A stretch of DNA of 33,408 nucleotides from Nanobdellota archaeon (GCA_018901675.1 JAHIEH010000067.1:1-33408), one strand, 5' to 3'. Positions 929 to 23,436 are shown, counted from the first letter of the stretch. Notes: generated by a model from the sequence alone, not told the origin. Numbers and translations: made by a program.

Positions 929-1594
929 ATGAAAATCAAAGATCTACCGGACTCTTCTAAACCTAGAGAAAGGTTTCTGAAATATGGGCCAGAAGTATTA
1001 AGTGATGCGGAGTTATTCGCGATAATATTGAGAACAGGAAGCAAAGGGGAGAATGTAGTAGATATGTCTAATCGACTTATTGCTGAATATGGCTTAGATA
1101 AGTTGTTTGAATGTTCATTAAAAGAACTGCAGGAAATAAAAGGAATTGGTCCAAGTAAGGCGATGCAAATACTAACCATTGCAGAGCTTCAAAAAAGGAC
1201 GAATCAGGCAAAAAAGCCTGTTAAGAAAATAACATGTGCAAAAGATGTTTTTGATTATTTTCATGAAAGGCTGAAAGATGAAAAGCAAGAGCATTTTTAT
1301 GTATTAATGCTGAATAATCAAAACAATATAATTGGGGAGCATCTAGTAAGCAAAGGAATTCTTGATGCTTCAATCTTGCATCCCAGAGAAGTTTTTAAGC
1401 CTGCGATAAAAAACTCTGCATCAAAGATAATTTTAATACATAACCATCCAAGTGGGGATCCTGAGCCAAGTGGGGAGGATTTAGATATAACAGAAAAATT
1501 GGTGAAAGCGGGAGAGGAATTGGGGATAAAGGTTTTGGATAGTGTGATTATTGGGGGAGAGAGGTGGTGGAGTTGGAAAGAAAGCTCAAATTAA
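929..1594 (+). CDS. radC: RadC-like JAMM/MPN domain protein (UPF0758)
   Basis: N-terminal helix-hairpin-helix region (LSDAELFAIILRTGSKGENV, IKGIGPSKA). C-terminal JAMM motif HNHPSGDPEPSGEDLDIT. Typical length of 221 aa. Confidence 0.9.
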   Translation: MKIKDLPDSSKPRERFLKYGPEVLSDAELFAIILRTGSKGENVVDMSNRLIAEYGLDKLFECSLKELQEIKGIGPSKAMQILTIAELQKRTNQAKKPVKKITCAKDVFDYFHERLKDEKQEHFYVLMLNNQNNIIGEHLVSKGILDASILHPREVFKPAIKNSASKIILIHNHPSGDPEPSGEDLDITEKLVKAGEELGIKVLDSVIIGGERWWSWKESSN

Positions 1595-1812
1595 TCAACA
1601 GAAGAACAAGGCAATTTTCCCCTTAATCTTTTTAGTTCCTGTTTAAAATGTTTTCTACATAAATAACTCCAACCCCTGTCTTCATGTTTCTTTTCAAGTA
1701 AGAAGGGATAAACTTCCTTATATGCAAGATTTTTACATTTTCCCTCATAATCGCATAATGGTCTTCTTTTTCTATTAACAATTTTATGCCTTATTGTACT
1801 TTTTAATCCCAT
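1591..1812 (-). CDS. Small basic Cys/His-containing protein, unknown function
   Basis: 73-aa ATG ORF. Its 3' end overlaps the radC stop by 4 nt (convergent). Cys pairs CDYEGKC and LCRKH suggest a small metal-binding fold. No family recognised. Confidence 0.3.
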   Translation of the reverse strand: MGLKSTIRHKIVNRKRRPLCDYEGKCKNLAYKEVYPFLLEKKHEDRGWSYLCRKHFKQELKRLRGKLPCSSVD

Positions 1813-1842
1813 TCTATTTTGCTCCCCCCCTTTGTGATGATA

Positions 1843-1989
1843 TTATAAGCGCTCTCTAAGTCTCTTGAAGGAATATCTATTTCCCCCTTTTTTATTTAAG
1901 CAAACAGTTATTCCATTCAATTCTCCACTTCTTTGCATTTTATTAAACATTTTTCTTCCGTATTTTATTTTGGCTTCTTTTGGTGTCAT
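1843..1989 (-). CDS. Possible 48-aa basic small protein (below ORF-track cutoff)
   Basis: Hand translation gives MTPKEAKIKYGRKMFNKMQRSGELNGITVCLNKKGGNRYSFKRLRERL. Same strand and just upstream of 1591..1812. No homology recognised. Confidence 0.15.
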   Translation of the reverse strand: MTPKEAKIKYGRKMFNKMQRSGELNGITVCLNKKGGNRYSFKRLRERL

Positions 1990-2296
1990 TTTAATATCAA
2001 AAAGTCCTTAAGTATTACCCCCCACTAAAGTGTGTGGTTTGTTTGGACTTTTGGATGCTCAAGAATGCTTGCGAAAACCGCATCCTTTAGGATGCAGATG
2101 AGCATTCTTGACATAAAAGGTCAATAGGAAAAGGATTAGATAATGATCTTTAATCTGTAATCCTTGAGGGATTATCTTTAATCTTAATCATTAAATCTTC
2201 ACAGCACAACACAAAATTTTATTTTGTAATTTCCAATAAAGGAAGTTATTCTAATTCACTCTTACCTACTGACCCCACATAGCTATGTGAATATGA

Positions 2297-2761
2297 TTAT
2301 TCCAAGAGTTTAGTATTCCAATTAGCTAATTGTATCCTATTATCTAAATTTGATTTTTCATTCTCAAGTTTTTCAATGTCGTCTTCTATTTCAGATTCAT
2401 CTAATTGACTAATAAGTGTCTTTGTTTCTTTTTCAGAATACCAAGAACTTCTTTTTCTTTCAAATAGAGTATTTAATTGAGCAATTTTACTCCTAATATC
2501 CCCTACTTTGATTATGGCTTCTGCCAAATTAATCTTTTCTCCTGAAATTCCAGAATCAAGATTCGTTTTTGCAATCTTTATTTTTAATTTTCTTATCTCA
2601 TCAATTTTAAAATTTATTTCTTCTGTAAGTTTTTTGGGATCAAATTCTGATTTCTTTCCTTCTTCGATATAAACATTTTCTTTTCTTAGGTTAATTAATC
2701 TGACTAACCTATTTTTTTCTTTTTTTAATAAACTTAATGCTTCGCCTATATTCATTTTCAT
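2297..2761 (-). CDS. Coiled-coil protein resembling the DIP1984 (septicolysin-like) family
   Basis: 154 aa. N-terminal LxEALxLLKxxKNRL, an internal AEAIxxxxDIRSKIxxL segment, and the characteristic C-terminal ending RIQLANWNTKLLE. GGAG lies just 5' of the ATG. Family assignment is from memory of the consensus. Confidence 0.45.
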   Translation of the reverse strand: MKMNIGEALSLLKKEKNRLVRLINLRKENVYIEEGKKSEFDPKKLTEEINFKIDEIRKLKIKIAKTNLDSGISGEKINLAEAIIKVGDIRSKIAQLNTLFERKRSSWYSEKETKTLISQLDESEIEDDIEKLENEKSNLDNRIQLANWNTKLLE

Positions 2762-2829
2762 CTCCTTAAAAACTTAAAATTAATTAAACTTAAATAATCA
2801 ATGTGTAAGTTTTTGCACCCACAAAAACT

Positions 2830-3027
2830 TCAGCTCTTCTTTTTTCTGTCAAGATAGGTAACTATAATCTGTCTTCCTTTCTCATCTTCAGCAAGGTAAG
2901 AGAAAAGTTCCTGACCCTTTTCAAGGCAACATCCATCAACTATCAGCTTATTAATTGAAATATATGCTGTTGCTCTTTTGAAAATAATTTTGCTTTTCCA
3001 ACCCACTCCAACAAATTTATTTTTCAT
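2830..3027 (-). CDS. Small hypothetical protein (possibly swapped-hairpin/AbrB-like)
   Basis: 65-aa ATG ORF with a TATA box (3049-3058) 22-31 nt upstream. Divergent from the AbrB-like small ORF at 3136. Confidence 0.35.
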   Translation of the reverse strand: MKNKFVGVGWKSKIIFKRATAYISINKLIVDGCCLEKGQELFSYLAEDEKGRQIIVTYLDRKKKS

Positions 3028-3047
3028 TAGTTAGATAAGAAAACTAG

Positions 3048-3112
3048 ATTTATAAATATGTAGGTACCGACATAGTAACTTTAAAGTAGTAGGTTCCGAC
3101 AAGTATAAAAAA
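3048..3112. promoter_or_regulatory. Divergent promoter region with two TATA boxes and a direct repeat GTAGGTWCCGACA
   Basis: ATTTATAAATAT at 3048-3059 serves the minus gene that starts at 3027. TATAAAAAA at 3104-3112 serves the plus ORF that starts at 3136. Between them lie GTAGGTACCGACA (3060-3072) and GTAGGTTCCGACA (3089-3101). Confidence 0.4.
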
Positions 3113-3135
3113 GCTGTTCCTCTAGCATTAACTGT

Positions 3136-3303
3136 ATGAAAATTCAGAAACAACTTTCAAATAAGAGAAAAAATAAGAAATATTACAAGTACGCAGTTAT
3201 TATTCCCCCCATGTATGTTAAAGAATCGGGTTTAGAAGGATATGAACTTGAAGCAGAAGTAAACAAGGGAGAAATAAAAATAAAGAAGAAAAAAGAGCAT
3301 TAA
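3136..3303 (+). CDS. 55-aa SpoVT/AbrB-like small DNA-binding protein (antitoxin-like), below ORF-track cutoff
   Basis: Hand translation gives MKIQKQLSNKRKNKKYYKYAVIIPPMYVKESGLEGYELEAEVNKGEIKIKKKKEH. The xxIPxxxxxxxGLxxGxxL...V pattern is typical of AbrB/MazE swapped-hairpin domains. Confidence 0.35.
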   Translation: MKIQKQLSNKRKNKKYYKYAVIIPPMYVKESGLEGYELEAEVNKGEIKIKKKKEH

Positions 3304-3929
3304 TTTTCAAATAATAAATTCTTTAATTTTGGCTTCTTATGGTTCTTTAATCTTAAATCATTCTCTACAAAGTCGTAGCTTCCAGAGTCTATATGTTTAT
3401 CAGCAGTTACAAAGAAGAAAATATCTCTATTCTGTTGCATTTGCATTGCGCTGGTTAAGACTCTACAATCTGCAAAATCCACAATAAATTCATGAACAAT
3501 TGAAAGAATAAAGTGATCTAAATCTGATTTTTTTATACTTATTTCATTTACTTTATTTTTTAAAAATAAAGCTACCGAGACATTTAAAAAATCAATTTCA
3601 GAATCAAATTCTTTTTTTAGCTTAATAATATTTTTCTCTTTAAGCTTTGAATATATATTTTGGGCGAAAATAGCGTCTCCTTTATTTAAGAAATTAGTTT
3701 TTGTATAGTCTATTTCATAAGTAGGGTTTTTTATTTTTCTTAAAACACATTCATACATCTTTTTTCTTTGAAGAATAACTCTGCGTAACTCTTCCTTAAC
3801 TATAAAAGAAATCAATATTTTAGTGTTTGAAGATTTTATGTACTCAAAGCACTTTTTCCGAAGTTGCTCTTCTATATAATTATACTCTATATATTTTACA
3901 ATAATCATGCTGTCTAAAAAAGAATCCAT
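3300..3929 (-). CDS. PIN-like nuclease with a large insertion (putative toxin or effector)
   Basis: The track ORF starts at TTG 3944. The ATG at 3929 is preceded by GGAGAG 10 nt upstream. Candidate PIN acidic residues lie in FLDSMIIV, VKEELRRV, DCRVLTSAMQ and FVTADKH, with about 100 aa inserted between the second and third. Confidence 0.4.
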   Translation of the reverse strand: MDSFLDSMIIVKYIEYNYIEEQLRKKCFEYIKSSNTKILISFIVKEELRRVILQRKKMYECVLRKIKNPTYEIDYTKTNFLNKGDAIFAQNIYSKLKEKNIIKLKKEFDSEIDFLNVSVALFLKNKVNEISIKKSDLDHFILSIVHEFIVDFADCRVLTSAMQMQQNRDIFFFVTADKHIDSGSYDFVENDLRLKNHKKPKLKNLLFEN

Positions 3930-5306: not shown

Positions 5307-5331
5307 AGGCAGTATAGTTCTGGGGGGAGAG
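5307..5331 (+). repeat. 25-bp perfect direct repeat, copy 1 (AGGCAGTATAGTTCTGGGGGGAGAG), followed by a G/A-rich tract to about 5370
   Basis: Identical 25-mer at 6167-6191. The following tract GGGGGGAGAGAGGGAGAGGGGGAGAAGGGGAGGAGG has four or more G-runs of at least 3. Confidence 0.9.
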
Positions 5332-5372: not shown

Positions 5373-5723
5373 TTAATAATGCCCTTTTTTCTCGTAATCG
5401 CTATGGTCTTCTTCAACTTCCAAGATAATTTGAAGGACTTTAAATTCTCCTCCAGAAACAACAGTGTAAAATCCTCTTGATCCTCTTGTTAATTTAATCA
5501 TAAATAGATTTGTTACACCATACTTCTTTTCATAGTAATTGTAAATAGGAAGTTTTTTTGAAATTGGTAGTCCTGTTCTTTTTTCTTTTAAGAATTGGAT
5601 TGCTTTTAAAATAAGAAAGTAGAATTTTTCATTTGTTTTGTTTCCTTTTAATAATTCTGATTCTATATCTGTTTTAGATTTAAATAATTCAGAAGATAAC
5701 TGAACTATAAATTCCTTTTCCAT
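5373..5723 (-). CDS. RelE/ParE-superfamily toxin-like protein
   Basis: 116 aa. C-terminal pattern NLFMIKLTRGSRGFYTVV...FKVLQIILEVEEDHSDYEK matches the RelE/ParE core (xxRxxYxx...vxixxvxxHxxYe). Its start overlaps the upstream gene stop (TAATG). Confidence 0.5.
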   Translation of the reverse strand: MEKEFIVQLSSELFKSKTDIESELLKGNKTNEKFYFLILKAIQFLKEKRTGLPISKKLPIYNYYEKKYGVTNLFMIKLTRGSRGFYTVVSGGEFKVLQIILEVEEDHSDYEKKGHY

Positions 5724-5980
5724 TAAATGCTTACCGCTCCCTGGATTAATTCATTTAATTTTTTATTGTTAGGGAAAATCCAGACAATTTTATCTTCATC
5801 AAAAATTATTTTATTGGACTTTTCCAAGTAGTTTAAAATTAGCTTAAATGTTTGATATTGCATTTTTTTTGGAAGAGATTTCCATAATTCCATTCTTGTG
5901 GGGTAATCTTTTGTCTCTTGAATTATCTTTTCTACCATTAAAATTGAGTCTAATTGGGGGTAATGTAATACATTTTCCAT
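5723..5980 (-). CDS. Small wHTH-like protein, putative cognate antitoxin
   Basis: 85-aa ORF translationally coupled to the RelE-like gene, with helix-rich winged-helix-like spacing. Assigned by position. Confidence 0.45.
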   Translation of the reverse strand: MENVLHYPQLDSILMVEKIIQETKDYPTRMELWKSLPKKMQYQTFKLILNYLEKSNKIIFDEDKIVWIFPNNKKLNELIQGAVSI

Positions 5981-6037: not shown

Positions 6038-6232
6038 AGTCTGGAAATGGAAAGGGAGAGAAGGAGGAGTTGGAGAGGGAGTTGCAGGTGTAAGAAGGTT
6101 TAGGGAAGGGGGTTTGAGGGTGGGAAGAGGGGAAAGGGGGATAAATTTTTATAGGAGAGGAGTAAAAGGCAGTATAGTTCTGGGGGGAGAGCGAGTTGCA
6201 GGTGTAAGAAGGGGTGAGGGAATTAATTTTAT
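6038..6232 (+). repeat. G/A-rich low-complexity element with an internal 20-bp direct repeat and copy 2 of the 25-bp repeat
   Basis: GAGTTGCAGGTGTAAGAAGG occurs at 6079-6098 and 6193-6212. The 25-mer is at 6167-6191. A G-quadruplex-type run GGGAAGGGGGTTTGAGGGTGGGAAGAGGGGAAAGGGGG lies at 6103-6140. Confidence 0.9.
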
Positions 6233-6715: not shown

Positions 6716-9418
6716 TTATTTAATACTTTCTTCAACAATTTCTATTTCTTCGGGGGTTAAGCCATATAATTTATAGACTTCTTGATTTATCTCGTAGTTA
6801 ACATTATCAATTTGCTGTTTTAACCTTTCTTTTTCATTCCCTGATATTTTTTCATCATGATACTTTTTCTGGAGGTCTAACATTTGGTTTACTGAAGAGG
6901 TTATCTTTTGTTGTTGTTTTTCAGAGAGTTCTTTAGGAATAGGGATTTGCTTTGCATATGCTTCATAAAAATCCATAGATCTTATAGCATTTTGATAAAT
7001 AAATTTGTAAGTGTAATACTGAATCAAACTAGAGTTAAGTAAAGCTACAATAAATTCTTCTGAATATTTTTTATCTGAGACCAATATATTCGTCACAGTA
7101 TTAAATGAGAATAAACCTTCTCTATCAAATGCTACGGTTAATTTTATATGATCTTTAATATGCGCGACTATTCTTTGAGCAACAATGTGTGGTTGATAAA
7201 ACTTCTGCATCTCTTTTTTATACTTCTGCATCTCTTTATCTTGAGGATTATAATACTTACAACCACGTATAAACCATCTTTGGATATCATTTCCCCTCAA
7301 AACCTTAAGATAATCCTTCTTTTTTTCCTCAATAAAATTATCCATTCCTTGAATTCCTAAACCTAAAAAGATATGTGTAACATCCCCTAAACGTTTACCC
7401 TGAGTTTCTAATTTACGTTTAATTCCATAAGCTTTTTCATTAGACTCAAGATAAATCTTGTTATCTTTAATGCATATTTCTTGTTCTATTTGGGCAGTTT
7501 CTAAAATCTCTCGCATATCTTTGATTTCACCAATGATTATCTTATTTTTGGGTTTAAATTCGTTTTTGGTACAAAATATCACTTGTTCCAGTAATACCTC
7601 CTCAAATGCTTTACCAGCATCTACGACAGTTTTAAAACTGGTTTTTTCCAAGATTTCTTTTCTAACCTTACTCCAAGATTCAGTAAATGCTAACATTTTA
7701 GGGACGATCATTCCCATAAAACCATCCCTTTTAATTAATTTCAGTCCTTTATGAATAAAGACTGCAGATATATTCATCATACCGTCTTTAATCTCCTTAA
7801 AATCTGAGGTATTTTTTATCGGATCTCCTTCAAGAATCTTAAAATAGGGCGGATTACCAATCACAATGTCAAAACCACCTTGTTTGAAAACCTCTGGAAA
7901 TTGGGCATTCCAATTAAAAGCATGATCAGAAACTTTTATGTCATCAATCAACGAGTTTCCACATTTTACATTTGTTAAATTAGGAAGCTTGGAAATTTTC
8001 GTATCTTGGTCTTCCTCTTCTAAAACTTTTAAAAGTAAATTCAATCGTGCAAGCTCTACTGCTTTTTCATCTAAATCCACCCCATAAATACAATTTGTTA
8101 ATATGGTTATTTTTTGAGACAGATTCAATCTTTGATTATAACCCTTAAAAGTACTCCATTTTTCAGATTTATTACCATTCTTCAAAAGTTCTTCAATTTT
8201 GTTGATAACTTCTTGAAAGGCTCTTATTAAAAAACTTCCACTCCCACAAGTAGGATCAACGATTTTAACTTGAAGTATTTCATCTAAGGACTTATTCTTT
8301 AAATATTCTCCAACAGTATTCTTGATAATATAATCCACAATATAAGAAGGAGTATAATAAATCCCCATTTTTTTTCTTTTTCCAGTCTTATCATCAAGTT
8401 TTACTCTTTTTTCTGTCCCCTCCAAGATTGTCCCAAGATATTGTTCATAAATACTTCCAAATAAATCTCCAGGAATTATATCAAACATATATTTGTCCTG
8501 ATTTCCTTCTACACCAAAATACAAAGCCAATATAACTTTTCTTAGAACATCATCAGAGAACGTTCCTTCTTTCTCTAACAATCCCTGCTCAAATAACTTA
8601 GAATCGTACTTTTGATTAAAGTAAACGAATTTTTCTAGTAAATATGGAAAAAGCTGTAATTTAGTTATTTGTTGTCTGACATCCGCTTCAAGACTTTTTA
8701 GATAATATAGTGCTTCTAATCCTCTGTCTTCAACAGACCTTATAAAAATTAATCTATCAATAAATATCTGGACTATCTCATCAATTTTTTCTTTCTCTAA
8801 ATAATTCTTCTTCTGTTTTATTTCTTTAGAGAGCCATTCTCTTATTTTTAATAAATCCTGTAAAAGTGATTCATCGATTGGTTTACTTAACTTTTCATCT
8901 TTTGTCGAAAGAAGATTGTTTATCTCTTTTTTTTCAAAACTTTCTCTAGAAAGAAGCCAAAGAGTATCGAATTTATCAATAAATTCCTTAAAATTTATTC
9001 TGAAGTAATCATTATTGTGGCGTAAAAGATTCTTATCTATATTCTTTATATTTGAAAGAGCATGATAAACCCTAATATCTTTAAAATTTGTCAAGACAGC
9101 AAATTTTATTTTTCTATGATATGCATAAGAAACTGCTTGTTTACCTGCATCTTCGTCTAAGAGCACATTAGTCTTTTTAGCTTCAATAACTAAAACTTCT
9201 TGATTAGCAATTTTTAAAATATAATCTGCCCTACCTTTCAAAACTCTTGGTTCTTTTTGAACCTCTTTTCTATCCCAACCTAATATCTCTTCAAATAATG
9301 GTTCTATAAATTGATGTTTAATATCTTCTTCTGGTTTAGACTCCCAATATTTCTGTCCTTCTGAAAATTGTTTGACTAATTCCCTAAGTTTTTCTTTAGC
9401 TTCTTCTTTATTTATCAT
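6716..9418 (-). CDS. Single-chain type IIG restriction-modification enzyme (Eco57I/MmeI-like: nuclease + N6-adenine methyltransferase + specificity region)
   Basis: 900 aa. N-terminal PD-(D/E)XK-like motif GRADYILK...VLVIEAKK. Methyltransferase motif I is DPTCGSGSFL, preceded by GIYYTPSYIV. Motif IV is GNPPYF. A long C-terminal region follows, as in TaqI-like target-recognition domains. Confidence 0.87.
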   Translation of the reverse strand: MINKEEAKEKLRELVKQFSEGQKYWESKPEEDIKHQFIEPLFEEILGWDRKEVQKEPRVLKGRADYILKIANQEVLVIEAKKTNVLLDEDAGKQAVSYAYHRKIKFAVLTNFKDIRVYHALSNIKNIDKNLLRHNNDYFRINFKEFIDKFDTLWLLSRESFEKKEINNLLSTKDEKLSKPIDESLLQDLLKIREWLSKEIKQKKNYLEKEKIDEIVQIFIDRLIFIRSVEDRGLEALYYLKSLEADVRQQITKLQLFPYLLEKFVYFNQKYDSKLFEQGLLEKEGTFSDDVLRKVILALYFGVEGNQDKYMFDIIPGDLFGSIYEQYLGTILEGTEKRVKLDDKTGKRKKMGIYYTPSYIVDYIIKNTVGEYLKNKSLDEILQVKIVDPTCGSGSFLIRAFQEVINKIEELLKNGNKSEKWSTFKGYNQRLNLSQKITILTNCIYGVDLDEKAVELARLNLLLKVLEEEDQDTKISKLPNLTNVKCGNSLIDDIKVSDHAFNWNAQFPEVFKQGGFDIVIGNPPYFKILEGDPIKNTSDFKEIKDGMMNISAVFIHKGLKLIKRDGFMGMIVPKMLAFTESWSKVRKEILEKTSFKTVVDAGKAFEEVLLEQVIFCTKNEFKPKNKIIIGEIKDMREILETAQIEQEICIKDNKIYLESNEKAYGIKRKLETQGKRLGDVTHIFLGLGIQGMDNFIEEKKKDYLKVLRGNDIQRWFIRGCKYYNPQDKEMQKYKKEMQKFYQPHIVAQRIVAHIKDHIKLTVAFDREGLFSFNTVTNILVSDKKYSEEFIVALLNSSLIQYYTYKFIYQNAIRSMDFYEAYAKQIPIPKELSEKQQQKITSSVNQMLDLQKKYHDEKISGNEKERLKQQIDNVNYEINQEVYKLYGLTPEEIEIVEESIK

Positions 9419-9489: not shown

Positions 9490-10125
9490 TCACCCCAGTA
9501 ATTTCTCAAATTTAGCTTTATTATCCATGTAAAATGAATAGATTTCCTTATTTATATCTTTTTTTCCAGAATTTAACGTTATTAACAAGCCATAAAGCCA
9601 TAAAAATTTATCTAAATCTTCAAAAGATACACCAATAAGAGAATTTTCCTTTCTAAACCTTTCAATTCCATCCAAGAAGTTTTGATAAGTTCTGGTGTCT
9701 TTCCATCCAATTAGTTTACTTAGTGCAATGCAGACATACTTATCATATAATGGATACCTTATTTTATTATGAAAATGACAGAATTTACTTGCAAAAGACA
9801 GCAGATTTTTGCCTATACATTTAGATATTTTATCTACTGCATGAGGAGAACCTTGTTTTAACATTTCATCAAGTTTTTCGATCTTTGTAATATGTTCTGC
9901 CACTGCAATCTGATCCTTGAGATTAGTTTTGTATAAAGAGTCTATAAGAATTACTTTCATCAATATTACTTCTTTGTTATTATTTAGAGGATTCTTATTA
10001 AAATAATTAGTCAAAGTAGAATTTGCAAGATTCCATTTGGGAAGTTTTGAGTATATTTCTTTTGCAATTTCTATTTTTTTATCTTCTAGCATTTGACAAA
10101 ATTTTATAATAGTTTTCCCCTCCAA
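9490..10125 (-). CDS. Uncharacterised protein, family X (paralog of 13979..14641)
   Basis: Shares the block LSFASKFCHFHNKIRYPLYDKY with SLASKYLHFHVPIFPIYDSR in 13979..14641. It overlaps the 3' end of the nucleotidyltransferase gene. The start is uncertain (TTG 10125 or ATG 10092). Confidence 0.55.
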   Translation of the reverse strand: MEGKTIIKFCQMLEDKKIEIAKEIYSKLPKWNLANSTLTNYFNKNPLNNNKEVILMKVILIDSLYKTNLKDQIAVAEHITKIEKLDEMLKQGSPHAVDKISKCIGKNLLSFASKFCHFHNKIRYPLYDKYVCIALSKLIGWKDTRTYQNFLDGIERFRKENSLIGVSFEDLDKFLWLYGLLITLNSGKKDINKEIYSFYMDNKAKFEKLLG

Positions 10126-10675
10126 AAACTATCAAATGTTTATTTAAGGATTCATTTAAAATGTTTATTTGTTCTCTTTTTGAAAACATTTCGTAGGCAC
10201 TTTCTTTTCCTAAAACATTTAAGTCTAATTTAAAAGAAAAATTGGAGGCAATATTTTTGATTATTCCTTCAATTTGTTCAACTTTATTTTGTTTGTCTAA
10301 GATTATTATCATATCTAAATCATTAAATTTCTTTTTTTCTGCAAAAGAGCCAAAAATTAAAAATATAAAAAAATCTTCATTTATTTCTTTTAAGCAGTCT
10401 TTGATGAATAAAGAAACAGATTTTTCTTTTGCTATAGAATTTTTAGTTCTTAATGATTCTGCATATGAGAGTTCTGCGATATTTTCTTTATAGTTAAGAG
10501 AGAGGAGTTTTTTCTCATCTGACAGAATAAACCTGTCTTTTATTAGCTCCTGCATTGACCTATGAATTAGTGCATAAGGTTTTTTCAAAACTCCAGCAAC
10601 TTCATTTATACTAAATTTTTTATCTATTCTTGAAACAAAGATTTTCATTATTTCGATTTGTGTTTTTGTTAGCAT
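10079..10675 (-). CDS. wHTH-fused minimal nucleotidyltransferase (MNT/Pol-beta fold)
   Basis: 198 aa. N-terminal winged helix (FSINEVAGVLKKPYALIHRSMQELIKDRFI). Nucleotidyltransferase signature LIFGSFAEKKKFNDLDMIIILD (GS...DxD). Confidence 0.7.
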   Translation of the reverse strand: MLTKTQIEIMKIFVSRIDKKFSINEVAGVLKKPYALIHRSMQELIKDRFILSDEKKLLSLNYKENIAELSYAESLRTKNSIAKEKSVSLFIKDCLKEINEDFFIFLIFGSFAEKKKFNDLDMIIILDKQNKVEQIEGIIKNIASNFSFKLDLNVLGKESAYEMFSKREQINILNESLNKHLIVFGGENYYKILSNARR

Positions 10676-10713
10676 TTTTATTTATATCTTTTTAGATATA
10701 ATAATATATCTTT

Positions 10714-11040
10714 TTAGTCATATTTAAATTTTGTGGTTTTTACGAATGTTTTCATCTTACAACTTCCCTCTCCTTCCTCTCTTTCTTCCCCCCTCCCCCT
10801 CACCTCACCCATAAACTTACCGCAAACTTCGCAAACAATGCATCTCTTGCCATTAATGATTTTTCCTTCAAAATGAGCGCAGCAGCAACCGCTATGGAAA
10901 AATGTTGCTTCTTTATTGCAAAGCTTGCATTTTTTAGCTGGTTTAATTGCTTTAGCTGTTTTTGTCGTTTTGGTTGTTTTTTGTTTCTTATTTCTTTTTG
11001 TCATCTTCAATTTCTCCCTTTTGCTCAAGCTTACACTCAT
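10714..11040 (-). CDS. Basic N-terminus plus Cys-rich zinc-ribbon-like small protein
   Basis: The ATG at 11040 overlaps the AAA+ gene stop as ATGA. An alternative ATG at 11004 sits in the conserved TTGAAGATGA context. Lys/Thr-rich basic tract, then CKLCNKEATFFHSGCCCAHFEGKIINGKRCIVCEVCGKF. The C-terminus reads into a purine-rich repeat. Confidence 0.4.
   Translation of the reverse strand: MSVSLSKREKLKMTKRNKKQKTTKTTKTAKAIKPAKKCKLCNKEATFFHSGCCCAHFEGKIINGKRCIVCEVCGKFMGEVRGRGEEREEGEGSCKMKTFVKTTKFKYD
10998..11040 (-). repeat. Junction element copy L3
   Basis: Minus strand reads ATGAGTGTAAGCTTGAGCAAAAGGGAGAAATTGAAGATGACA. It aligns by eye with copies at 12406 and 15581 (about 32 of 38 nt, with one indel). 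Confidence 0.75.
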
Positions 11041-12311
11041 TTTATACTCCTTGCGGAATTCATCGCTAAAAGCCATTTCCAAACAGGCTTTATAATTATC
11101 TTCTTGCCATTTATATTTTCTTCGCCTTCTTTATCTAATGTAAGAATAATCCCTTCTTTAAGAGTATATTTCTGCATAGCTTCCAAAAGACCTTCGATTT
11201 CTCTCTTTTTTGTCATAGGGCTCTCTAAATTTAGACAAACCTGAATTGCCTGAGTTATTTTTAGCCCTTTTTTAACAATAAAATCACATTCTTTTTTGCC
11301 TAAATGATAATAAACTTCGAAACCTTCTTTTAACAATTCTATAAAAACTAAATTTTCTAGTCTTTGCCCCCTATTTTCTATAAAGTTAAATGCGACTGTT
11401 TTAAGAAAGCTATTGTCTAAAACATAAAATTTAGATGAAGAAACCTGTTGTTTTTTTAATGAATAATCAAATCTATTGATAGTTGAAGCGAGAAAAACCC
11501 CCTTCATATATTCAATGTAATTTTTTATCATGCTTAAACTCTTTATTCCAGAAATTATCTTTAAAGTAGAATAAGAATAAACTTTGCCCACATTTGAAAA
11601 AAGATATAAGATAAGATCTTTAATCTCCTTTGTTTTTTTAATGTGATATCTTTGAATTATATCCTTATTAAGTATGTCTTCAAAATATTGTTTGGACAAT
11701 TCCAAATCATTGTTCTTTATTACTAAAGGGAAGCCCCCCTTTTCAAAATACTCTTCAAAGGCGCCCATCAAAATTATTCTTTCATTAGAAGTTTTTGGAT
11801 TTTCTTGAATGTTTTTAAACCTTAAAAATTCTTTAAATGAAAAAGGGTATAGTCTTAGAACTTTATTTCTTCCTGTTAAAAATGTTGAGATTTCTGAACT
11901 TAATAAACTTGAATTTGAGCCGGTTACAAAAACTTTTATTTTTTTGGCAAAGAGGTTATTAACCCATCTTTCCCAAGAAGGAATGTTTTGAATTTCATCA
12001 AAAAAAAACACAACCTCAGACCCAATGCTATGCAATTCTTTAGCAAAGTCTTCTATATCCTGAAAATTTTCAATCTTAAAGTCTGTAAATCTGACATCAT
12101 CAAAGTTTATGTAAATCTTTTTTTTATTGATTTTATTGGAAATAATCTTTAAGAGGGTGCTTTTTCCGCATCTTCTTATGCCACTTATGATTACAATTTC
12201 ATTTCCTCTTAAATAAGGCTCTAAGGATATTTCTCTTTCTATTAACTCTTCTTCCTTATTGAATAGTTCTTGTTGTTCATTCAAAAGTTCATATAATTTT
12301 GTTTTTTCCAT
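11037..12311 (-). CDS. AAA+ superfamily ATPase of the COG1373 / DUF4143 type
   Basis: 424 aa. Walker A is SGIRRCGKSTLL and Walker B is VVFFFDEIQ. The C-terminal restriction-endonuclease-like module (KECDFIVKKG...AIQVC) is typical of DUF4143 ATPases. Confidence 0.8.
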   Translation of the reverse strand: MEKTKLYELLNEQQELFNKEEELIEREISLEPYLRGNEIVIISGIRRCGKSTLLKIISNKINKKKIYINFDDVRFTDFKIENFQDIEDFAKELHSIGSEVVFFFDEIQNIPSWERWVNNLFAKKIKVFVTGSNSSLLSSEISTFLTGRNKVLRLYPFSFKEFLRFKNIQENPKTSNERIILMGAFEEYFEKGGFPLVIKNNDLELSKQYFEDILNKDIIQRYHIKKTKEIKDLILYLFSNVGKVYSYSTLKIISGIKSLSMIKNYIEYMKGVFLASTINRFDYSLKKQQVSSSKFYVLDNSFLKTVAFNFIENRGQRLENLVFIELLKEGFEVYYHLGKKECDFIVKKGLKITQAIQVCLNLESPMTKKREIEGLLEAMQKYTLKEGIILTLDKEGEENINGKKIIIKPVWKWLLAMNSARSIK

Positions 12312-12405
12312 GATTTCTATTGTCTTTGAGAGTTTATAAACCTTTCTTTGTAATTTAATAACTCTTTATAAACATATGTTAAATGGAAATTAACTATATG
12401 GTTTC

Positions 12406-12445
12406 TTATTCATCTTCAATATCTCCCCTATTGCTCAAACTAACA
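12406..12445 (-). repeat. Junction element copy L1
   Basis: The plus-strand 18-mer TTATTCATCTTCAATATC is identical to 15581-15598. About 33 of 38 nt match overall. It encodes the last 12 codons plus the stop of the Nudix gene. Confidence 0.85.
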
Positions 12446-12861
12446 TCCCCTAAAATACTGACCAATTTTTCCTTGCTATCTATACTTTCATCCCAATCAA
12501 TTTGCTCTATAAACTTTTCCTTGGAAAGCCACCTAAACTCTGTATGCTCTCCGCTTAGCTTAGGTATCGCTTCTTTAACTTTGATAAGAAATGCTCTTTC
12601 TTTGTGCATCTTGCCAGAATTCTTTGGCCATTCATATTCCCCAAGATAATCTGTTTTTTTAATTTCTAATATCTCTAATCCTGTTTCTTCTTTTACTTCT
12701 CTTCTTATTGCTTTCTCTTCACTTTCATTCTTCTCAACACTTCCAGTAACAACAAACCAAATATCTACTTTAAGCCATTTAGGGTTTGTTCTTAGAATTA
12801 AAAAATTTCTTTTATCAGAATAAATTATTGCCATAATCTTTGGATTGGTTTTGTTATTCAT
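12406..12861 (-). CDS. Nudix hydrolase
   Basis: Nudix box GSVEKNESEEKAIRREVKEETGLE. I place the start at ATG 12861 (MNNKTNPK), preceded by GGAGG. The track extension to 12972 is read-through of a purine-rich repeat. The C-terminal tail VSLSNRGDIEDE is encoded by the junction element. Confidence 0.8.
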   Translation of the reverse strand: MNNKTNPKIMAIIYSDKRNFLILRTNPKWLKVDIWFVVTGSVEKNESEEKAIRREVKEETGLEILEIKKTDYLGEYEWPKNSGKMHKERAFLIKVKEAIPKLSGEHTEFRWLSKEKFIEQIDWDESIDSKEKLVSILGDVSLSNRGDIEDE

Positions 12862-12935
12862 CTTCAATACCTCCTCTCTTCCCCAAACCTCCTCTCTTTT
12901 AATAACCTTTTTGTAACCCCCTCCCTTAATCTTAG
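12854..12935 (-). repeat. Junction-core copy L4 fused to a purine-rich tract
   Basis: TTATTCATCTTCAATA lies at 12854-12869. Upstream on the minus strand is GGGAGGGGG...AGAGAGGAGGTTTGGGGAAGAGAGGAGG. It provides the Nudix gene start context. Confidence 0.7.
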
Positions 12936-13016
12936 ATATATAACATGCCCTGTAAATTATCACACTTAACAATCTCTTCCCAAAACTCTTTTAAACTTCT
13001 TTATCTTTGATAAACC

Positions 13017-13916
13017 ATGGGAGATGAAAAGAAAGAGAATCAAAAAGATGAACAAGAAGGCGAAAATACACATATAGCTATTTTTAATGGAAAAGCTATA
13101 AGAAGAAAACTTGTTGGTGATAAATGGTTCTTTTCAGTTGTTGATATTATCCGGGTTTTGACTGATAGTGTTGACCCAAAAGATTATTGGTATAGGTTAA
13201 AAGTAAGAGAGAAAGAATCTTCAGAAATTGAGCTATCGACATTTTGTCGACAACTGAAGCTCAAATCAGGAGACGGGAAAGAGTACGAAACAGATTGCGC
13301 AGACACAGAAGGTATATTCAGAATAATTCAATCAATTCCTTCAAAAAAGGCAGAGCCGTTTAAAAGATGGCTTGCAAAAGTTGGTTATGAAAGAGTGCAG
13401 GAAATTGAAAACCCAGAACTTGCACAAGAAAGAATGAAAAATCTTTATGAGCAAAAAGGATATTCTAAAGACTGGATTGAAAAAAGATTAAGAGGAATTG
13501 CTATAAGGCAGGAGCTGACAGACGAGTGGAAGAATAGAAAGATAAAAGAAGAGAAAGAGTTCGCAATCTTAACAAATGAAATAAGCAAAGCAACTTTTGG
13601 AAAAACAGTTGAAGAGTATAAGAATTTTAAGAAACTAAAAAGAGAAAATTTAAGAGATCATATGGATGATTTAGAATTAATTTTTAGTATGCTTGGAGAG
13701 GCAGCAACTACTAGAATTACTAAAACAAAAGATACTCAGGGTTTTGGAGAAAATAAAATTGCAGCCAGACAAGGTGGAGAAGTTGCTGGAAATGCAAGAA
13801 AAGAGCTTGAATTAAAAACAGGAGAGAGTGTTCTTAATGAGGATAATTTTTTAAATCTTCCAGAAAAACTAAAGAAAAAAAGGAAGAAACTCCTTGAACA
13901 AGTAGAGATTATTTAA
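13017..13916 (+). CDS. Bro-N domain protein (prophage antirepressor / DinD-like family)
   Basis: The N-terminal Bro-N pattern is IAIFNGKAIRRKLVGDKWFFSVVDIIRVLTDS. The downstream block PFKRWLAKVGYERVQEIENPELAQERMKNLYEQKGYSKDWIEKRLRGIAIRQELTDEW is typical of this family. Confidence 0.75.
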   Translation: MGDEKKENQKDEQEGENTHIAIFNGKAIRRKLVGDKWFFSVVDIIRVLTDSVDPKDYWYRLKVREKESSEIELSTFCRQLKLKSGDGKEYETDCADTEGIFRIIQSIPSKKAEPFKRWLAKVGYERVQEIENPELAQERMKNLYEQKGYSKDWIEKRLRGIAIRQELTDEWKNRKIKEEKEFAILTNEISKATFGKTVEEYKNFKKLKRENLRDHMDDLELIFSMLGEAATTRITKTKDTQGFGENKIAARQGGEVAGNARKELELKTGESVLNEDNFLNLPEKLKKKRKKLLEQVEII

Positions 13917-13978
13917 CATGTCCTATAGATTATCCCCCTCCATCTAGTAAATCGAGAAATGTTTATACGCTACCATTT

Positions 13979-14641
13979 TTATCTTTTGCCTACTTTCTTT
14001 TTATTTAACCTATCATTAGCATTTTTAATCAAAAATGTGTCAATCTCCCTTAAAGTCGGAGCTTTTCGAGAGTTATTTTTAATATAGTTGTAAAGAAAAA
14101 GGATTTTATTGCAGAATTTAAAATATTTTTCATCACATAAAAAATCAGCATCCTCTACTCTTCCAACCACTATCTTGTTTATAGAGCTGTTTGCTCTAGA
14201 GTCATATATTGGGAAAATTGGCACGTGAAAATGCAGGTATTTAGAAGCTAATGACCTCTTTTCTTTTCCTGTTAATTCTTTGAAAAATTTTGTGAGTTCT
14301 TTGTGGAGGATTAAGATGTCTTTTAATGTTTTTTCGTTAAATTCTTTATTTTTCAGCTTGCTTAATTTTTCATCAAATTTATTTTTACTATTGAATTTTA
14401 TAAACTCTTTAACAACATAATCATAAAAATCATCATTGATATGCTTTTTGTTTATTTTAGATCTCCTTTCAATTGATGCGGCATAAGACCTTCCAATAAG
14501 CAATATTTTTGCACGGATTTCTTCAGGATCTGTATGTGATGGATAATCTGAACACATTTTATATAAAATATTATTTCCAAGCATCCATTTTTTATCTTTC
14601 AAATTATTAAATTTCTTTACATCAAAATTTATTAGTTTCAT
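13979..14641 (-). CDS. Uncharacterised protein, family X (paralog of 9490..10125); last gene of the 4-gene operon
   Basis: 220 aa. Shared motif SLASKYLHFHVPIFPIYDSR. Its start overlaps the upstream stop as ATGA (14638-14641). Confidence 0.6.
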   Translation of the reverse strand: MKLINFDVKKFNNLKDKKWMLGNNILYKMCSDYPSHTDPEEIRAKILLIGRSYAASIERRSKINKKHINDDFYDYVVKEFIKFNSKNKFDEKLSKLKNKEFNEKTLKDILILHKELTKFFKELTGKEKRSLASKYLHFHVPIFPIYDSRANSSINKIVVGRVEDADFLCDEKYFKFCNKILFLYNYIKNNSRKAPTLREIDTFLIKNANDRLNKKKVGKR

Positions 14642-15147
14642 TTTACTTCCCCAAGATATAACATTCCCTTATGATTCTCTAAAAAATTTAGTCTAAAACT
14701 CTGTAATTGAGTTAAATTAGTAATTTTATTTAAATGATTTTCCCATAAATTTTTATTTGATTCTAAATCTAAAGGAAATACGATAAATAATACATATTTG
14801 GAGTCATAATCATTATTCTTTCTTAAATCATGAATATCTTTTATTATTCCATCTATATTCTTTGTAATTGGTCTAATTTTTCTAGTATAATCCTGTTGAT
14901 AATTTGTATTTATTGTCTTTAACTCAATCGCATAACTAAGAGATTTGTGTTTAAAGGTTATATCAATTCTTTCTTTTTCAGGAATTACTTCAGTACAACC
15001 CAACTTAATTGCAGAATCTACTATTTCTACTTTTAACCATCCCTCAAATTTAGAAATATTTTTTATAAACTCAGATATGCCTCTATGAGATTCTATTTTT
15101 CTTATTATATCTTTTATTATCTCGTTAAGTATCTCTTCTTCACTCAT
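14638..15147 (-). CDS. Restriction-endonuclease-like (PD-(D/E)XK) small protein
   Basis: 169 aa. Candidate catalytic signature EGWLKVE ... ERIDITFKHKSLSYAIELKT (E, D, ExK spacing). It lies 3 nt after the upstream gene. Confidence 0.45.
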   Translation of the reverse strand: MSEEEILNEIIKDIIRKIESHRGISEFIKNISKFEGWLKVEIVDSAIKLGCTEVIPEKERIDITFKHKSLSYAIELKTINTNYQQDYTRKIRPITKNIDGIIKDIHDLRKNNDYDSKYVLFIVFPLDLESNKNLWENHLNKITNLTQLQSFRLNFLENHKGMLYLGEVK

Positions 15148-15150
15148 CTT

Positions 15151-15588
15151 CTAAACCCCCCATTTCCTTACAACAACGCCTATAAAAGGCCGCTCATCAT
15201 TATATGGATCTTTTTTAGCATCAATTATCTCTACTTTCAGCTCTTTTATTTGATTTGAGTTATTGAAAGTTATTTTATCTAAAATAGAAATCACGCTTTC
15301 TGAAATATCCAAAATATTAGCAGATAAGTCTCCGAGATAGCAACTTAAAACTATCTTTATTTCATCATTAAAGAATCTTTTCATGCCAGGAAATTGTGTC
15401 TTTGTTATTACTTGTCTAATAAATGTCTTTTCCTTGGATGTTAATTTTTTAAAAGATTTGGGTAAAACTTCTATAGGAAAAGCAAGATAGTCTTTATTTT
15501 TATCACACTTTGGAATAACTTCCACTACTTTTTCTACAATTTCTTTATTCTCTATCAATTCTTCGATATTATTATCTTTTTTATTCAT
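15151..15588 (-). CDS. Hypothetical protein, no recognisable domain
   Basis: The track start is TTG 15594. The ATG at 15588 (MNKKDNN) sits inside the junction element and overlaps the 3' end of the nuclease gene by 8 nt. Confidence 0.5.
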   Translation of the reverse strand: MNKKDNNIEELIENKEIVEKVVEVIPKCDKNKDYLAFPIEVLPKSFKKLTSKEKTFIRQVITKTQFPGMKRFFNDEIKIVLSCYLGDLSANILDISESVISILDKITFNNSNQIKELKVEIIDAKKDPYNDERPFIGVVVRKWGV

Positions 15589-15620
15589 CTTCAATATCCC
15601 TTCTCTTGCTCAGACTAATT
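15581..15620 (-). repeat. Junction element copy L2
   Basis: Minus strand reads AATTAGTCTGAGCAAGAGAAGGGATATTGAAGATGAATAA. It encodes ISLSKRRDIEDE plus the stop of the nuclease, and in the +1 frame the ATG of the next gene. Confidence 0.85.
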
Positions 15621-16768
15621 CTCCAATCTTTCTCTATCTTAACCTTATCTTTAATTTCATCCTCAATTTCTCCCCTGAGAACTTTGCTGTTAAGCTTTGG
15701 ATAGCAAACCATTGAGCATTCCTCATAGATACCTTTGTCTTTCATCAGCTTTATGAAAGCTTCTTTGTCTTTTCCCTCAGGCATAACAATTTTGTCAAAC
15801 TCCTTAACAGATGCTTTTGCATTGCTCCCATAAATAACATCAATTCCTTTTTGCTTGGCAAACCCAATTAACTTGGTTCTTAATTCATCTTGTGTTTCTT
15901 CTAGTTCAGAAAGCTTAGCTTTAACCTCTGCAAACTCATCAACAAATTTCACTCCTTGATCTTCTTTAAATTCTTCAACTGGTTTTTCTTCTATTTCTGC
16001 AAGATGCTTGAAACTCGGGCACTCTGATTTATAACCACACCAATCGCATAATTTTGTAGTGTTTGTAGGAAAATCATTCTCTTTAGTTGCTTCTTCTATT
16101 TCCTGGATAGTTTCCATAACCTCTTGCTGCAATTCCTTAAGCTGTTCGTTTGTTCTCTCGCTGGTTATCTCTTTATCAAAAGCAAGCATATGCCATTTTA
16201 AGATAACTTTTTTAGCATCCTTGAATTTATCTTTAACCCATATAGAATACATTGCTAATTGCCTGTCTGAATCAGCTTCTTCTTGCAGCTTTATTCTTGC
16301 ATTTGTCTTATAATCACAGACAAAATAAGTATCTCCTTTGCATCCTAACTTGTCTATCCTTACATGCCAGGAATTTCCATCAGGCAAAGTCAACCTGTCT
16401 TGAGTTTCTAATCCAAGAATTGTCATGTCATCATCTTTATGAGAATCATAATAATCGGAAATATATTTCTCCCCCATTTTCCTGTAATTATCAGCTTTAA
16501 GCCCTTCATCTTCTTTAGCAATTAAAATGTCATCAGAATACTCTTTTTCCCATAAATCCCTGTAAAATTTTATTAGAATTTTCTTTTCAACCCTTTTCTT
16601 AAATTTCTTATCCTTGTATAGCTTTTCCAGGGTTTGATGCACTAAATCACCCATAAAAGCTTCAATTGTAGTCTCTATTTCAGGTTTAATTTTATCTATA
16701 TAATGAAGCTTATACTGATACGGGCATGTTTCAAAAGTGTTTATTCTTGAATTTGAGTATGTTGCCAT
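15581..16768 (-). CDS. Cas4/AddB-like PD-(D/E)XK nuclease with 4-Cys Fe-S cluster motif and about 130-aa C-terminal extension
   Basis: The N-terminus SRINTFETCPYQYKLHYI supplies the first Cys. Nuclease motifs are HVRIDKL...YFVCDYKT and QLAMYSIW. The C-terminal Cys triad is CDWCGYKSECP. No cas1, cas2 or CRISPR array lies nearby. Confidence 0.75.
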   Translation of the reverse strand: MATYSNSRINTFETCPYQYKLHYIDKIKPEIETTIEAFMGDLVHQTLEKLYKDKKFKKRVEKKILIKFYRDLWEKEYSDDILIAKEDEGLKADNYRKMGEKYISDYYDSHKDDDMTILGLETQDRLTLPDGNSWHVRIDKLGCKGDTYFVCDYKTNARIKLQEEADSDRQLAMYSIWVKDKFKDAKKVILKWHMLAFDKEITSERTNEQLKELQQEVMETIQEIEEATKENDFPTNTTKLCDWCGYKSECPSFKHLAEIEEKPVEEFKEDQGVKFVDEFAEVKAKLSELEETQDELRTKLIGFAKQKGIDVIYGSNAKASVKEFDKIVMPEGKDKEAFIKLMKDKGIYEECSMVCYPKLNSKVLRGEIEDEIKDKVKIEKDWRISLSKRRDIEDE

Positions 16769-23368: not shown

Positions 23369-23374
23369 TCTATT

Positions 23375-23436
23375 AATAATTGATTAATACTTTCTTAATA
23401 GGTTTAATAATTGATTAATACTTTCTTAATAGGTTT
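23375..23436. repeat. Perfect 31-bp tandem duplication (2 units)
   Basis: AATAATTGATTAATACTTTCTTAATAGGTTT occurs at 23375-23405 and again at 23406-23436. Unit 2 contains the last 7 codons and stop of the RelE-like gene. Confidence 0.95.

Follow-up and report, generated by a model that had tools for sequence, protein, structure and literature searches.

The window analysed here, an entire 33.4-kb contig of a Nanobdellota archaeon (C85; GCA_018901675.1, JAHIEH010000067.1:1-33408, 33,408 nt), belongs to an 824-kb genome bin with 33% G+C and carries an array of genes separated by copies of a ~40-nt element, which we trace to the 3' end of the Cas4-family nuclease gene that anchors the array. The contig also encodes a thermosome, CTP synthase and an intron-containing tRNA, and the closest named homologues belong to metagenome-assembled genomes of Pacearchaeota, Woesearchaeota and Nanoarchaeota, which identifies the host as a DPANN archaeon. 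Between 6.7 and 23 kb lies an island comprising genes for a type IIG restriction-modification (RM) enzyme, a nucleotidyltransferase (MNT), an AAA_14/DUF4143 ATPase, a Nudix hydrolase, a Bro-N protein and the Cas4-family nuclease, together with a radical-SAM operon. PADLOC candidate defence matches were obtained for the ATPase (PDC-S01, E = 1e-111), the Bro-N protein (PDC-S13, E = 1e-118), the Nudix hydrolase (PDC-S07) and the MNT (PDC-M05A). A search against Rfam returned no family in the array region, its sole matches being two tRNAs elsewhere.

The array runs on the minus strand, as do all features given here unless stated otherwise. Its anchor encodes a 395-amino-acid (aa) Cas4-family PD-(D/E)XK nuclease (15581..16768; PF12705, E = 3.4e-28), whose native 3' end, copy L2 (15577..15620), specifies the C-terminus WRISLSKRRDIEDE and has its stop codon within ATGAATAA. 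An ATG in L2 is the start of a 145-aa gene to which no function is assigned (15151..15588, 8-nt overlap), followed in the segment between L2 and L4 by a 169-aa gene with no family match (14638..15147), a 220-aa 'family X' gene (13979..14641; a distant paralogue of the gene at 9490-10125, BLASTP E = 5.8e-4) and the Bro-N gene, which is oriented opposite to the array (13017..13916, plus strand). The degenerate copy L4 (12850..12893) lies in the 5' leader of the Nudix hydrolase cassette (12406..12861; PDC-S07-like), where GGAGG is followed after 8 nt by the ATG, and the Nudix open reading frame (ORF) continues into L1 (12402..12445), a copy with a generic 5' half and a 3' portion of 22 nt that matches L2 at 21 positions. 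The ATG within L1 opens a stub of seven codons (MNKKPYS, 12390..12413). The AAA_14/DUF4143 ATPase cassette follows (11037..12311) and then L3 (10995..11040), a copy with 1-nt indels whose first ATG overlaps the ATPase stop (ATGA). Beyond it are a zinc-ribbon gene (10714..11004; 96 aa if it starts at the ATG within L3, which follows GGGAG and 9 nt), a pair consisting of a PDC-M05A-like MNT gene and the second family X gene (9490..10675) and, at the far end, the type IIG RM gene (6716..9418). The order is thus nuclease, L2, the segment from the 145-aa gene to Bro-N, L4, Nudix, L1, ATPase, L3, zinc ribbon/MNT/family X and RM, with all tail copies co-oriented.

A preliminary description of the window had proposed five copies of a portable gene-junction element that gives unrelated proteins the same C-terminal tail, and all sequences and coordinates quoted in it were recovered from the window sequence. 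L1 and L2 are identical at 33 of 38 positions, including a common 18-mer (GATATTGAAGATGAATAA). L3 resembles L1 as proposed, although at 31 of 38 positions with two 1-nt gaps rather than at about 32 with one indel. L4 is identical at 30–31 of 38 positions; its similarity is convincing only over the 3' ~20–25 nt and no ORF reads through it. The near-identical tails of the Cas4-like nuclease (ISLSKRRDIEDE) and the Nudix hydrolase (VSLSNRGDIEDE), the reading of MSVSLSKREKLKM, the stub behind L1 and the position of the Nudix gene between L4 and L1 were likewise confirmed. The 10-mer core TTGAAGATGA occurs five times in the window, always on the minus strand, against an expectation of 0.25, and none of 100 shuffles reached five. 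The genome-wide search suggested in that description recovered only L1, L2, L4 and L3 in the 824 kb when carried out with an nhmmer profile (E = 2e-9 to 1e-6), and among 44-mers the best unrelated match in the genome reached 28–29 identities, compared with 36 between L1 and L2 and 33–34 for L4. Within its own genome the element is therefore present only behind the 395-aa nuclease. Four of the five proposed copies thus stand. The fifth, L5 (22187..22196), lies in another reading frame (YLKMKNS) and is missed by the profile built from the four others; since it lacks extended similarity and the 10-mer has 11 further occurrences in the genome (~0.46 per 33 kb), it is a chance match, and profile and alignment rule it out as a member of the element. 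Two assemblies from other samples (99.35% and 100% identical) contain the same copies, all four in one (L161) and L4, L1 and L3 in the other, shorter one (L162), so an assembly artefact can be dismissed. Judged from their sequences, L1, L2, L3 and L4 are related by descent.

The source of the copies becomes apparent from the nuclease family. Homologues of the 395-aa nuclease number more than 1,700; the best 120 are 65–92% identical, and nearly all of those inspected end in (W/F/Y)R(I/L/V)SLSKRKDxEEE, with R383, L386, S387, K388 and R389 invariant or nearly so. In an AlphaFold model residues 377–388 (IEKDWRISLSKR) form a beta-strand of the C-terminal domain (predicted local distance difference test ~83), only the acidic end being disordered. 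This conservation at the protein level across homologues identifies L2 as the nuclease gene's native 3' end, and on the strength of these comparisons the ~40-nt element is that gene's 3'-terminal coding segment rather than a free-standing unit. Native tails vary between genomes at synonymous sites (Ser AGY/TCN, Leu TTR/CTN, Arg AGR/CGN), and comparing these sites revealed no universal DNA site in the tails across the family. The tail copies inside one genome, by contrast, have codon choices in common, which indicates that they descend at the DNA level from the resident tail or a closely related one. The Nudix hydrolase points the same way: 16 of the 19 homologues inspected have no tail and mostly stop at KLKEILG, while the three that are cassette-borne, including the one in the window, are tailed, so the Nudix tail was acquired at the DNA level. 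Of the proposed portable element there remains the set of related copies, but not its independence, as they derive from the C-terminal coding segment of the nuclease gene. The preliminary description had also allowed that the tails might belong to a genuine conserved protein domain, which would have counted against it; this is true of the nuclease and untrue of the Nudix hydrolase, most homologues of which are tail-less.

By hand count, the window's 42-nt tail (15581-15622) has 14 differences, mostly synonymous, from that of the closest relative (L003), compared with ~13% divergence over the whole gene. This is suggestive only of a recombination history of the tail that may differ from that of the gene body, and the drop in the last 60-nt bin of a sliding identity comparison along the gene is partly an artefact of including downstream DNA. 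Fragments of the C-terminal domain stand alone in some relatives.

The nuclease fold is closest to the ACE1, AdnAB and AddB nuclease domains, and Cas4 models match the protein below their cut-off. Two Cas4-family paralogues are present in the genome, the 395-aa protein with the C-terminal domain and tail, and a shorter one on another contig (C40:5066-5854) which represents the widespread form of ~255–290 aa. The 395-aa type occurs in only ~28 of the 151 genera of the family and is nevertheless 58–90% identical among them, a patchy presence implying that it is mobile. No relative of the nuclease was found on viral contigs, and a protein database search for stand-alone remnant ORFs returned only the query itself. 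The nuclease loci vary on both flanks, and RM genes are abundant on the downstream one, where they are the commonest neighbours.

The tail codons also hold signals for translation. KRKDxEEE is encoded as AAG AGG AAG GAT .. GAA GAA TGA/TAA, which spells out a purine-rich run resembling a Shine-Dalgarno (SD) sequence, an ATG (from GAT-GAA or GAA-TGA) and a stop. Consistent with the preliminary description, the genes behind L2 and L4 begin with the embedded ATG, which at L1 opens the stub alone; the gene behind L3 likewise begins with an embedded ATG. Independent gene calls use the embedded starts at L2 (the 145-aa gene, in L161) and L3 (the 96-aa zinc-ribbon gene). L2 (with ATGAATAA), L4 and L3 all display the layout of coupled junctions, that is, a stop and start that overlap or abut and an SD-like run, and 27 of the 77 nuclease loci have an unrelated ORF downstream that begins within the nuclease stop region (ATGA or ATGAATAA). 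Genes landing behind copies may thus often be translationally coupled to the gene upstream, the features involved being those of ordinary translational coupling. The ATPase behind L1 probably has its own promoter, as suggested by TATA-like boxes in the 94-nt spacer between the two.

The arrangement recurs in other DPANN contigs, two of which (L004 and L007) hold the other two tailed Nudix genes. L004, a 5.1-kb contig, has five co-oriented tail copies; four of them end a nuclease remnant of 41 or 82 aa, a low-molecular-weight-phosphatase-like gene, a GNAT gene and a Nudix gene, and the fifth forms a mini-ORF (MISLSKRKGAGE) downstream of an NTPase gene. The stop overlaps the following ATG (ATGA or ATGAATAA) at four of these five junctions. 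In L007 the nuclease is followed by a Nudix gene with the same ATGAATAA overlap and a tail of its own (C-terminus DKRISLSRRGKDE). Further arrangements, from a survey of 80 genome loci and 47 metagenome loci carrying the nuclease, are nuclease–Fic–remnant–GmrSD (L015), nuclease–NYN followed by a 129-nt copy ~90% identical over ~125 nt (L068), and nuclease–ATPase–tail followed by a 200-aa gene with a tail and then HsdM (L052), and extra same-strand tail copies also lie downstream of the nuclease in L003, L126, L095 and L099. Over 83 nuclease loci, clear extra copies were found seven times downstream on the same strand and at most once in the three control compartments (upstream or antisense). 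A 36-nt pattern specific to the window had no match in 100 relatives because its 3' half is genome-specific, and a degenerate 19-nt pattern searched in 151 family genomes gave a signal no better than that of a reversed-pattern control.

That the copies mark cassette boundaries, as previously proposed, is borne out by Nudix, GNAT, HsdM, ATPase and HEPN-MNT modules lying between or behind tails in different genomes, and by comparison with the closest relative (nuclease 92% identical at the aa level), in which DNA homology stops at the nuclease stop codon. Behind the conserved anchor come modules that retain pieces of its 3' end, and the same downstream gene can be found behind the native tail in one genome and behind the tail of a cassette or a remnant in a second, as is seen for GNAT (L079/L004/L140), HsdM (L095/L052) and a HEPN-like/MNT pair (L126/L097). 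The Nudix cassette is bounded by tails in three contexts (window, L004 and L007), and an AAA_14 ATPase lies between tail copies in both the window and L052. One copy, in the near-isogenic pair L097 and L126, is chimeric. From 57 nt before the nuclease stop to more than 800 nt downstream, the two are 96% identical, and just upstream of this stretch L097 carries a diverged copy of nuclease residues 353–376 fused to a fragment of another gene; the crossover therefore took place inside the element. L1 is a possible second mosaic, with a 5' half matching its own genome's tail at 15 of 21 positions and foreign tails at up to 17 of 21, and a 3' half matching L2 at 21 of 22 positions and foreign tails at no more than 19 of 22, a pattern that fits recombination within the tail or conversion.

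Searches for a site-specific system did not support the mechanistic side of the analogy with integron cassettes drawn in the preliminary description, given that there is no IntI, no hairpin and no DNA site common to different genomes, and that copy length is variable. The only tyrosine recombinase found genome-wide is XerA on contig C60 (242 bits against a cut-off of 220), which fails integron-integrase models; no recombinase domain was detected among the window ORFs, and no integrase was seen in those ORFs of the window, and of a few related loci inspected closely, that were listed or scanned. RNA folding of the four copies was no better than that of shuffles (z = -0.73 to +0.91), with no attC-like hairpin. 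The copies measure ~20 nt (L4), 40, 60, 70 and up to 129 nt, native tails differ synonymously between genomes, and no identical core of fixed length is shared. Co-oriented cassettes split by a repeated junction, as in integrons, are nonetheless present in the window and in L004 (five copies in 5.1 kb). Direct repeats of a target 3' end flanking an insert, which characterise integrative elements, are found as L2/L1 and in L068 (129 nt), L015 and L126, whereas the inserts examined contain no integrase or site-specific recombinase.

Duplications of a gene's 3' end are not restricted to the nuclease. On contig C59 (reverse strand, 1116-3925) the gene for the methionyl-tRNA synthetase core (metG; C-terminus KGEILFNKIK) is followed by a 424-aa permease gene and then by a copy of the metG 3' end, stop included, matching at 43 of 45 nt. 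On contig C60 (L088:1201-3077) XerA (275 aa) ends in KKVKSPIDSL, and the next co-oriented gene, which encodes a 337-aa protein with a helix-turn-helix domain and a DUF559/Vsr-like endonuclease, ends in KKIKSPIDSLMGKKEEK, thereby repeating nine of the ten XerA tail residues with synonymous differences. The latter case suggests a homing-endonuclease-like insertion behind xerA, and together the two like duplications argue for a general recombination process. A separate 138-aa ORF with a tRNA-binding domain lies further downstream of the metG copy.

Several array genes have a wider distribution. The MNT and family X pair recurs in L004 (MNT 70% aa identity), and an MNT is also found in L052 (83%). 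Relative to L052, the Bro-N region (window 13045-13920, 78% DNA identity) and the MNT region (10076-10728, 84%) are closer than the nuclease (69%), and both genes are placed and oriented differently there, Bro-N lying directly upstream of the nuclease. From these comparisons Bro-N and MNT are taken to be part of a common mobile pool. Between the ATPase genes, the final 87 nt (window 11049-11135 and L052:12455-12541) are 79% identical at the DNA level, compared with 28% for the proteins overall, so that the ATPase 3' end may move together with the tail copy next to it as one module. A 423-aa gene behind the nuclease in L003 was considered to be the same ATPase, wrongly, as it has no Pfam match and no similarity to window proteins. 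Two other repeats in the window are a perfect 31-bp tandem duplication between MazE/AbrB-like and ParE/RelE-like genes (23373-23434) and perfect 25-nt direct repeats in G/A-rich tracts (5307-5331 and 6167-6191) around a two-gene module (5373-5980).

We posit, with a probability of roughly 60%, that the tail copies are generated by recurrent insertion and displacement through recombination at the nuclease 3' end. In DPANN archaea, a mobile and highly conserved Cas4-family nuclease gene would be the fixed point of a rapidly changing island of candidate defence genes, with new genes entering directly behind its stop codon and its 3' end providing the homology for recombination. Each event would keep the nuclease gene intact and leave a displaced copy of its last ~20–130 nt beyond the insert, and successive events would build up the co-oriented array. 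Tail-flanked cassettes could then move among nuclease-bearing genomes via ordinary homologous recombination between tails, and an inserted ORF without its own stop, such as the Nudix gene, would read into the copy and so gain a tail. The junction repeat is, in short, a set of recombination scars of the 3' end of a conserved gene, ordinary in origin and unusual in organisation, while the pathway and the order of events are our inference. Several observations weigh against this model. One class of copies has a common 5' boundary on unrelated cassettes, 12 codons from (I/V/M)SLSKRK, which suggests a defined unit more readily than random scars. The 3' 16–18 nt of L2, L1 and L4 are identical, and simple displacement would need donors of the same variant, or gene conversion, to account for this. 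In addition, extra copies occur in only ~8% of nuclease loci, and translational coupling is deduced from sequence features alone.

Part of this evidence would suit a dedicated capture system, integrase-less and integron-like, acting at the nuclease stop-codon region and operated perhaps by the nuclease itself or by another partner; its mobile units would be tail-bearing cassettes of one gene each that are inserted, excised and, through coupling, expressed, and the nuclease would perhaps process DNA ends. The tight co-oriented single-gene cassettes of L004, each ending in the element, the 12-codon unit with its common 5' boundary on unrelated genes, the many genomes in which different genes start exactly at the embedded ATG, and an anchor whose fold resemblance suggests a DNA-end-processing nuclease all agree with such a system. 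We nevertheless consider it unlikely, since no DNA core is conserved across genomes, the copies vary from ~20 to 129 nt and form no hairpin, the sole tyrosine recombinase of the genome is XerA, encoded on another contig, and like duplications arose at metG and xerA, where the nuclease is not involved. We are equally doubtful that the copies are attL/attR remnants of integrase-bearing elements, small plasmids or viruses that targeted the nuclease 3' end and have since lost their integrases. Such elements characteristically produce direct repeats in which the 3' end of a target is duplicated while the gene itself remains whole; metG is followed by a near-perfect repeat of 45 nt, and comparable accretion of islands at tRNA genes is known from tycheposons. 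Yet no integrase was seen in the window or the related loci within the scope given above, inserts can be as small as one 0.45-kb gene, nuclease relatives were not found on viral contigs, and the repeats are not identical cores.

Alternatively, several island proteins could have been selected to keep the tail as a functional peptide tag, for docking or sorting for example, in line with the strong conservation of the nuclease tail at the protein level and the retention of SLSKRK and an acidic end in frame by several cassette proteins. This is very improbable, and we rejected it on the structure model, in which the segment is a beta-strand of the nuclease C-terminal domain rather than a free motif, and on the copies that are frameshifted (L3) or untranslated (L4); others are stand-alone mini-ORFs, most Nudix homologues lack the tail, and copies share synonymous codons with the resident tail of the same genome. 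Chance or convergent likeness among strong ribosome-binding regions might be invoked because the 3' part of the element is a purine-rich SD-like run followed by ATG, and L5 demonstrates that the 10-mer can arise fortuitously. For L1–L4 this explanation is effectively refuted by the 36 of 44 identities between L1 and L2 against a genome-wide maximum of 29, by profile E-values of 1e-6 to 2e-9, by the upstream AGTTTGAGCAA part, which is no ribosome-binding site, and by the recurrence of the element at homologous junctions in other genomes.

The genomes of DPANN archaea are tiny and contain few known mobile elements, and little is understood of the way in which these organisms acquire defence genes. 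If recurrent insertion behind the nuclease is correct, this type of locus offers a concrete route, in which a patchily distributed but highly conserved nuclease gene would serve as a landing pad and its 3' end would be reused to delimit cassettes, to provide a homology arm and to initiate translation. Copies of the tail downstream of the nuclease could then be a simple marker for recently acquired genes in metagenome bins of the Pacearchaeota/Woesearchaeota type, many of the genes so marked being candidate defence genes (PDC-S01, S07, S13, Fic, NYN, GmrSD and RM). For annotation the loci carry a warning, as short C-terminal tails common to unrelated proteins can be by-products of recombination rather than functional motifs. 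Should dedicated capture turn out to be correct instead, DPANN archaea would possess an integrase-less, integron-like platform for single-gene defence cassettes.

Our literature search found no paper describing a nuclease-anchored, co-oriented cassette array with tail copies, but several known systems resemble it in part. Integrons, including those of archaea (PMC9668308), likewise consist of co-oriented, mostly single-gene cassettes split by a repeated junction. They differ in having IntI, attC hairpins and a conserved DNA core, all missing here, where copy length varies and the platform gene encodes a nuclease and is transcribed in the direction of the cassettes. Tycheposons (10.1101/2020.12.28.424599) share with our loci the repeated integration at one conserved 3' end, the flexible island and the leftover partial copies of the target; they bring an integrase or transposase of their own and insert at tRNA genes, whereas here no such enzyme was seen and the target is the 3' end of a protein-coding gene. 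In the hyperplastic regions of T4-type phages, short expression signals are similarly repeated at gene boundaries in the form of PeSLs, which combine promoter and terminator stem-loops in intergenic DNA (PMC2839356, PMC4122927), and recombination between PeSL copies shuffles single genes and can yield mini-circles (PMC2839356, PMC4122927). The element described here is instead the coding sequence of a resident gene, has no promoter–terminator stem-loop or stable fold and, through its SD-like run and ATG, provides translational rather than transcriptional signals.

The effector–immunity arrays of the type VI secretion system (T6SS) in Vibrio cholerae, for which homology-facilitated illegitimate recombination without an integrase has been proposed (PMC5361080), offer a further parallel. 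As these and Rhs arrays are outlined in that study, a conserved upstream anchor is joined by new modules that enter beside it and push older ones downstream, and strings of orphan modules still carry pieces of the anchor's 3' region (PMC5361080), much as cassettes do behind the nuclease. Set against the same outline, the nuclease-anchored arrays differ in that the whole anchor gene is constant and only its last 20–130 nt are duplicated, and in that the downstream gene varies rather than the anchor's own C-terminal domain. They further differ in their remnants, which serve as ribosome-binding site and start codon and are sometimes fused in frame to the insert, and in their host, a DPANN archaeon.

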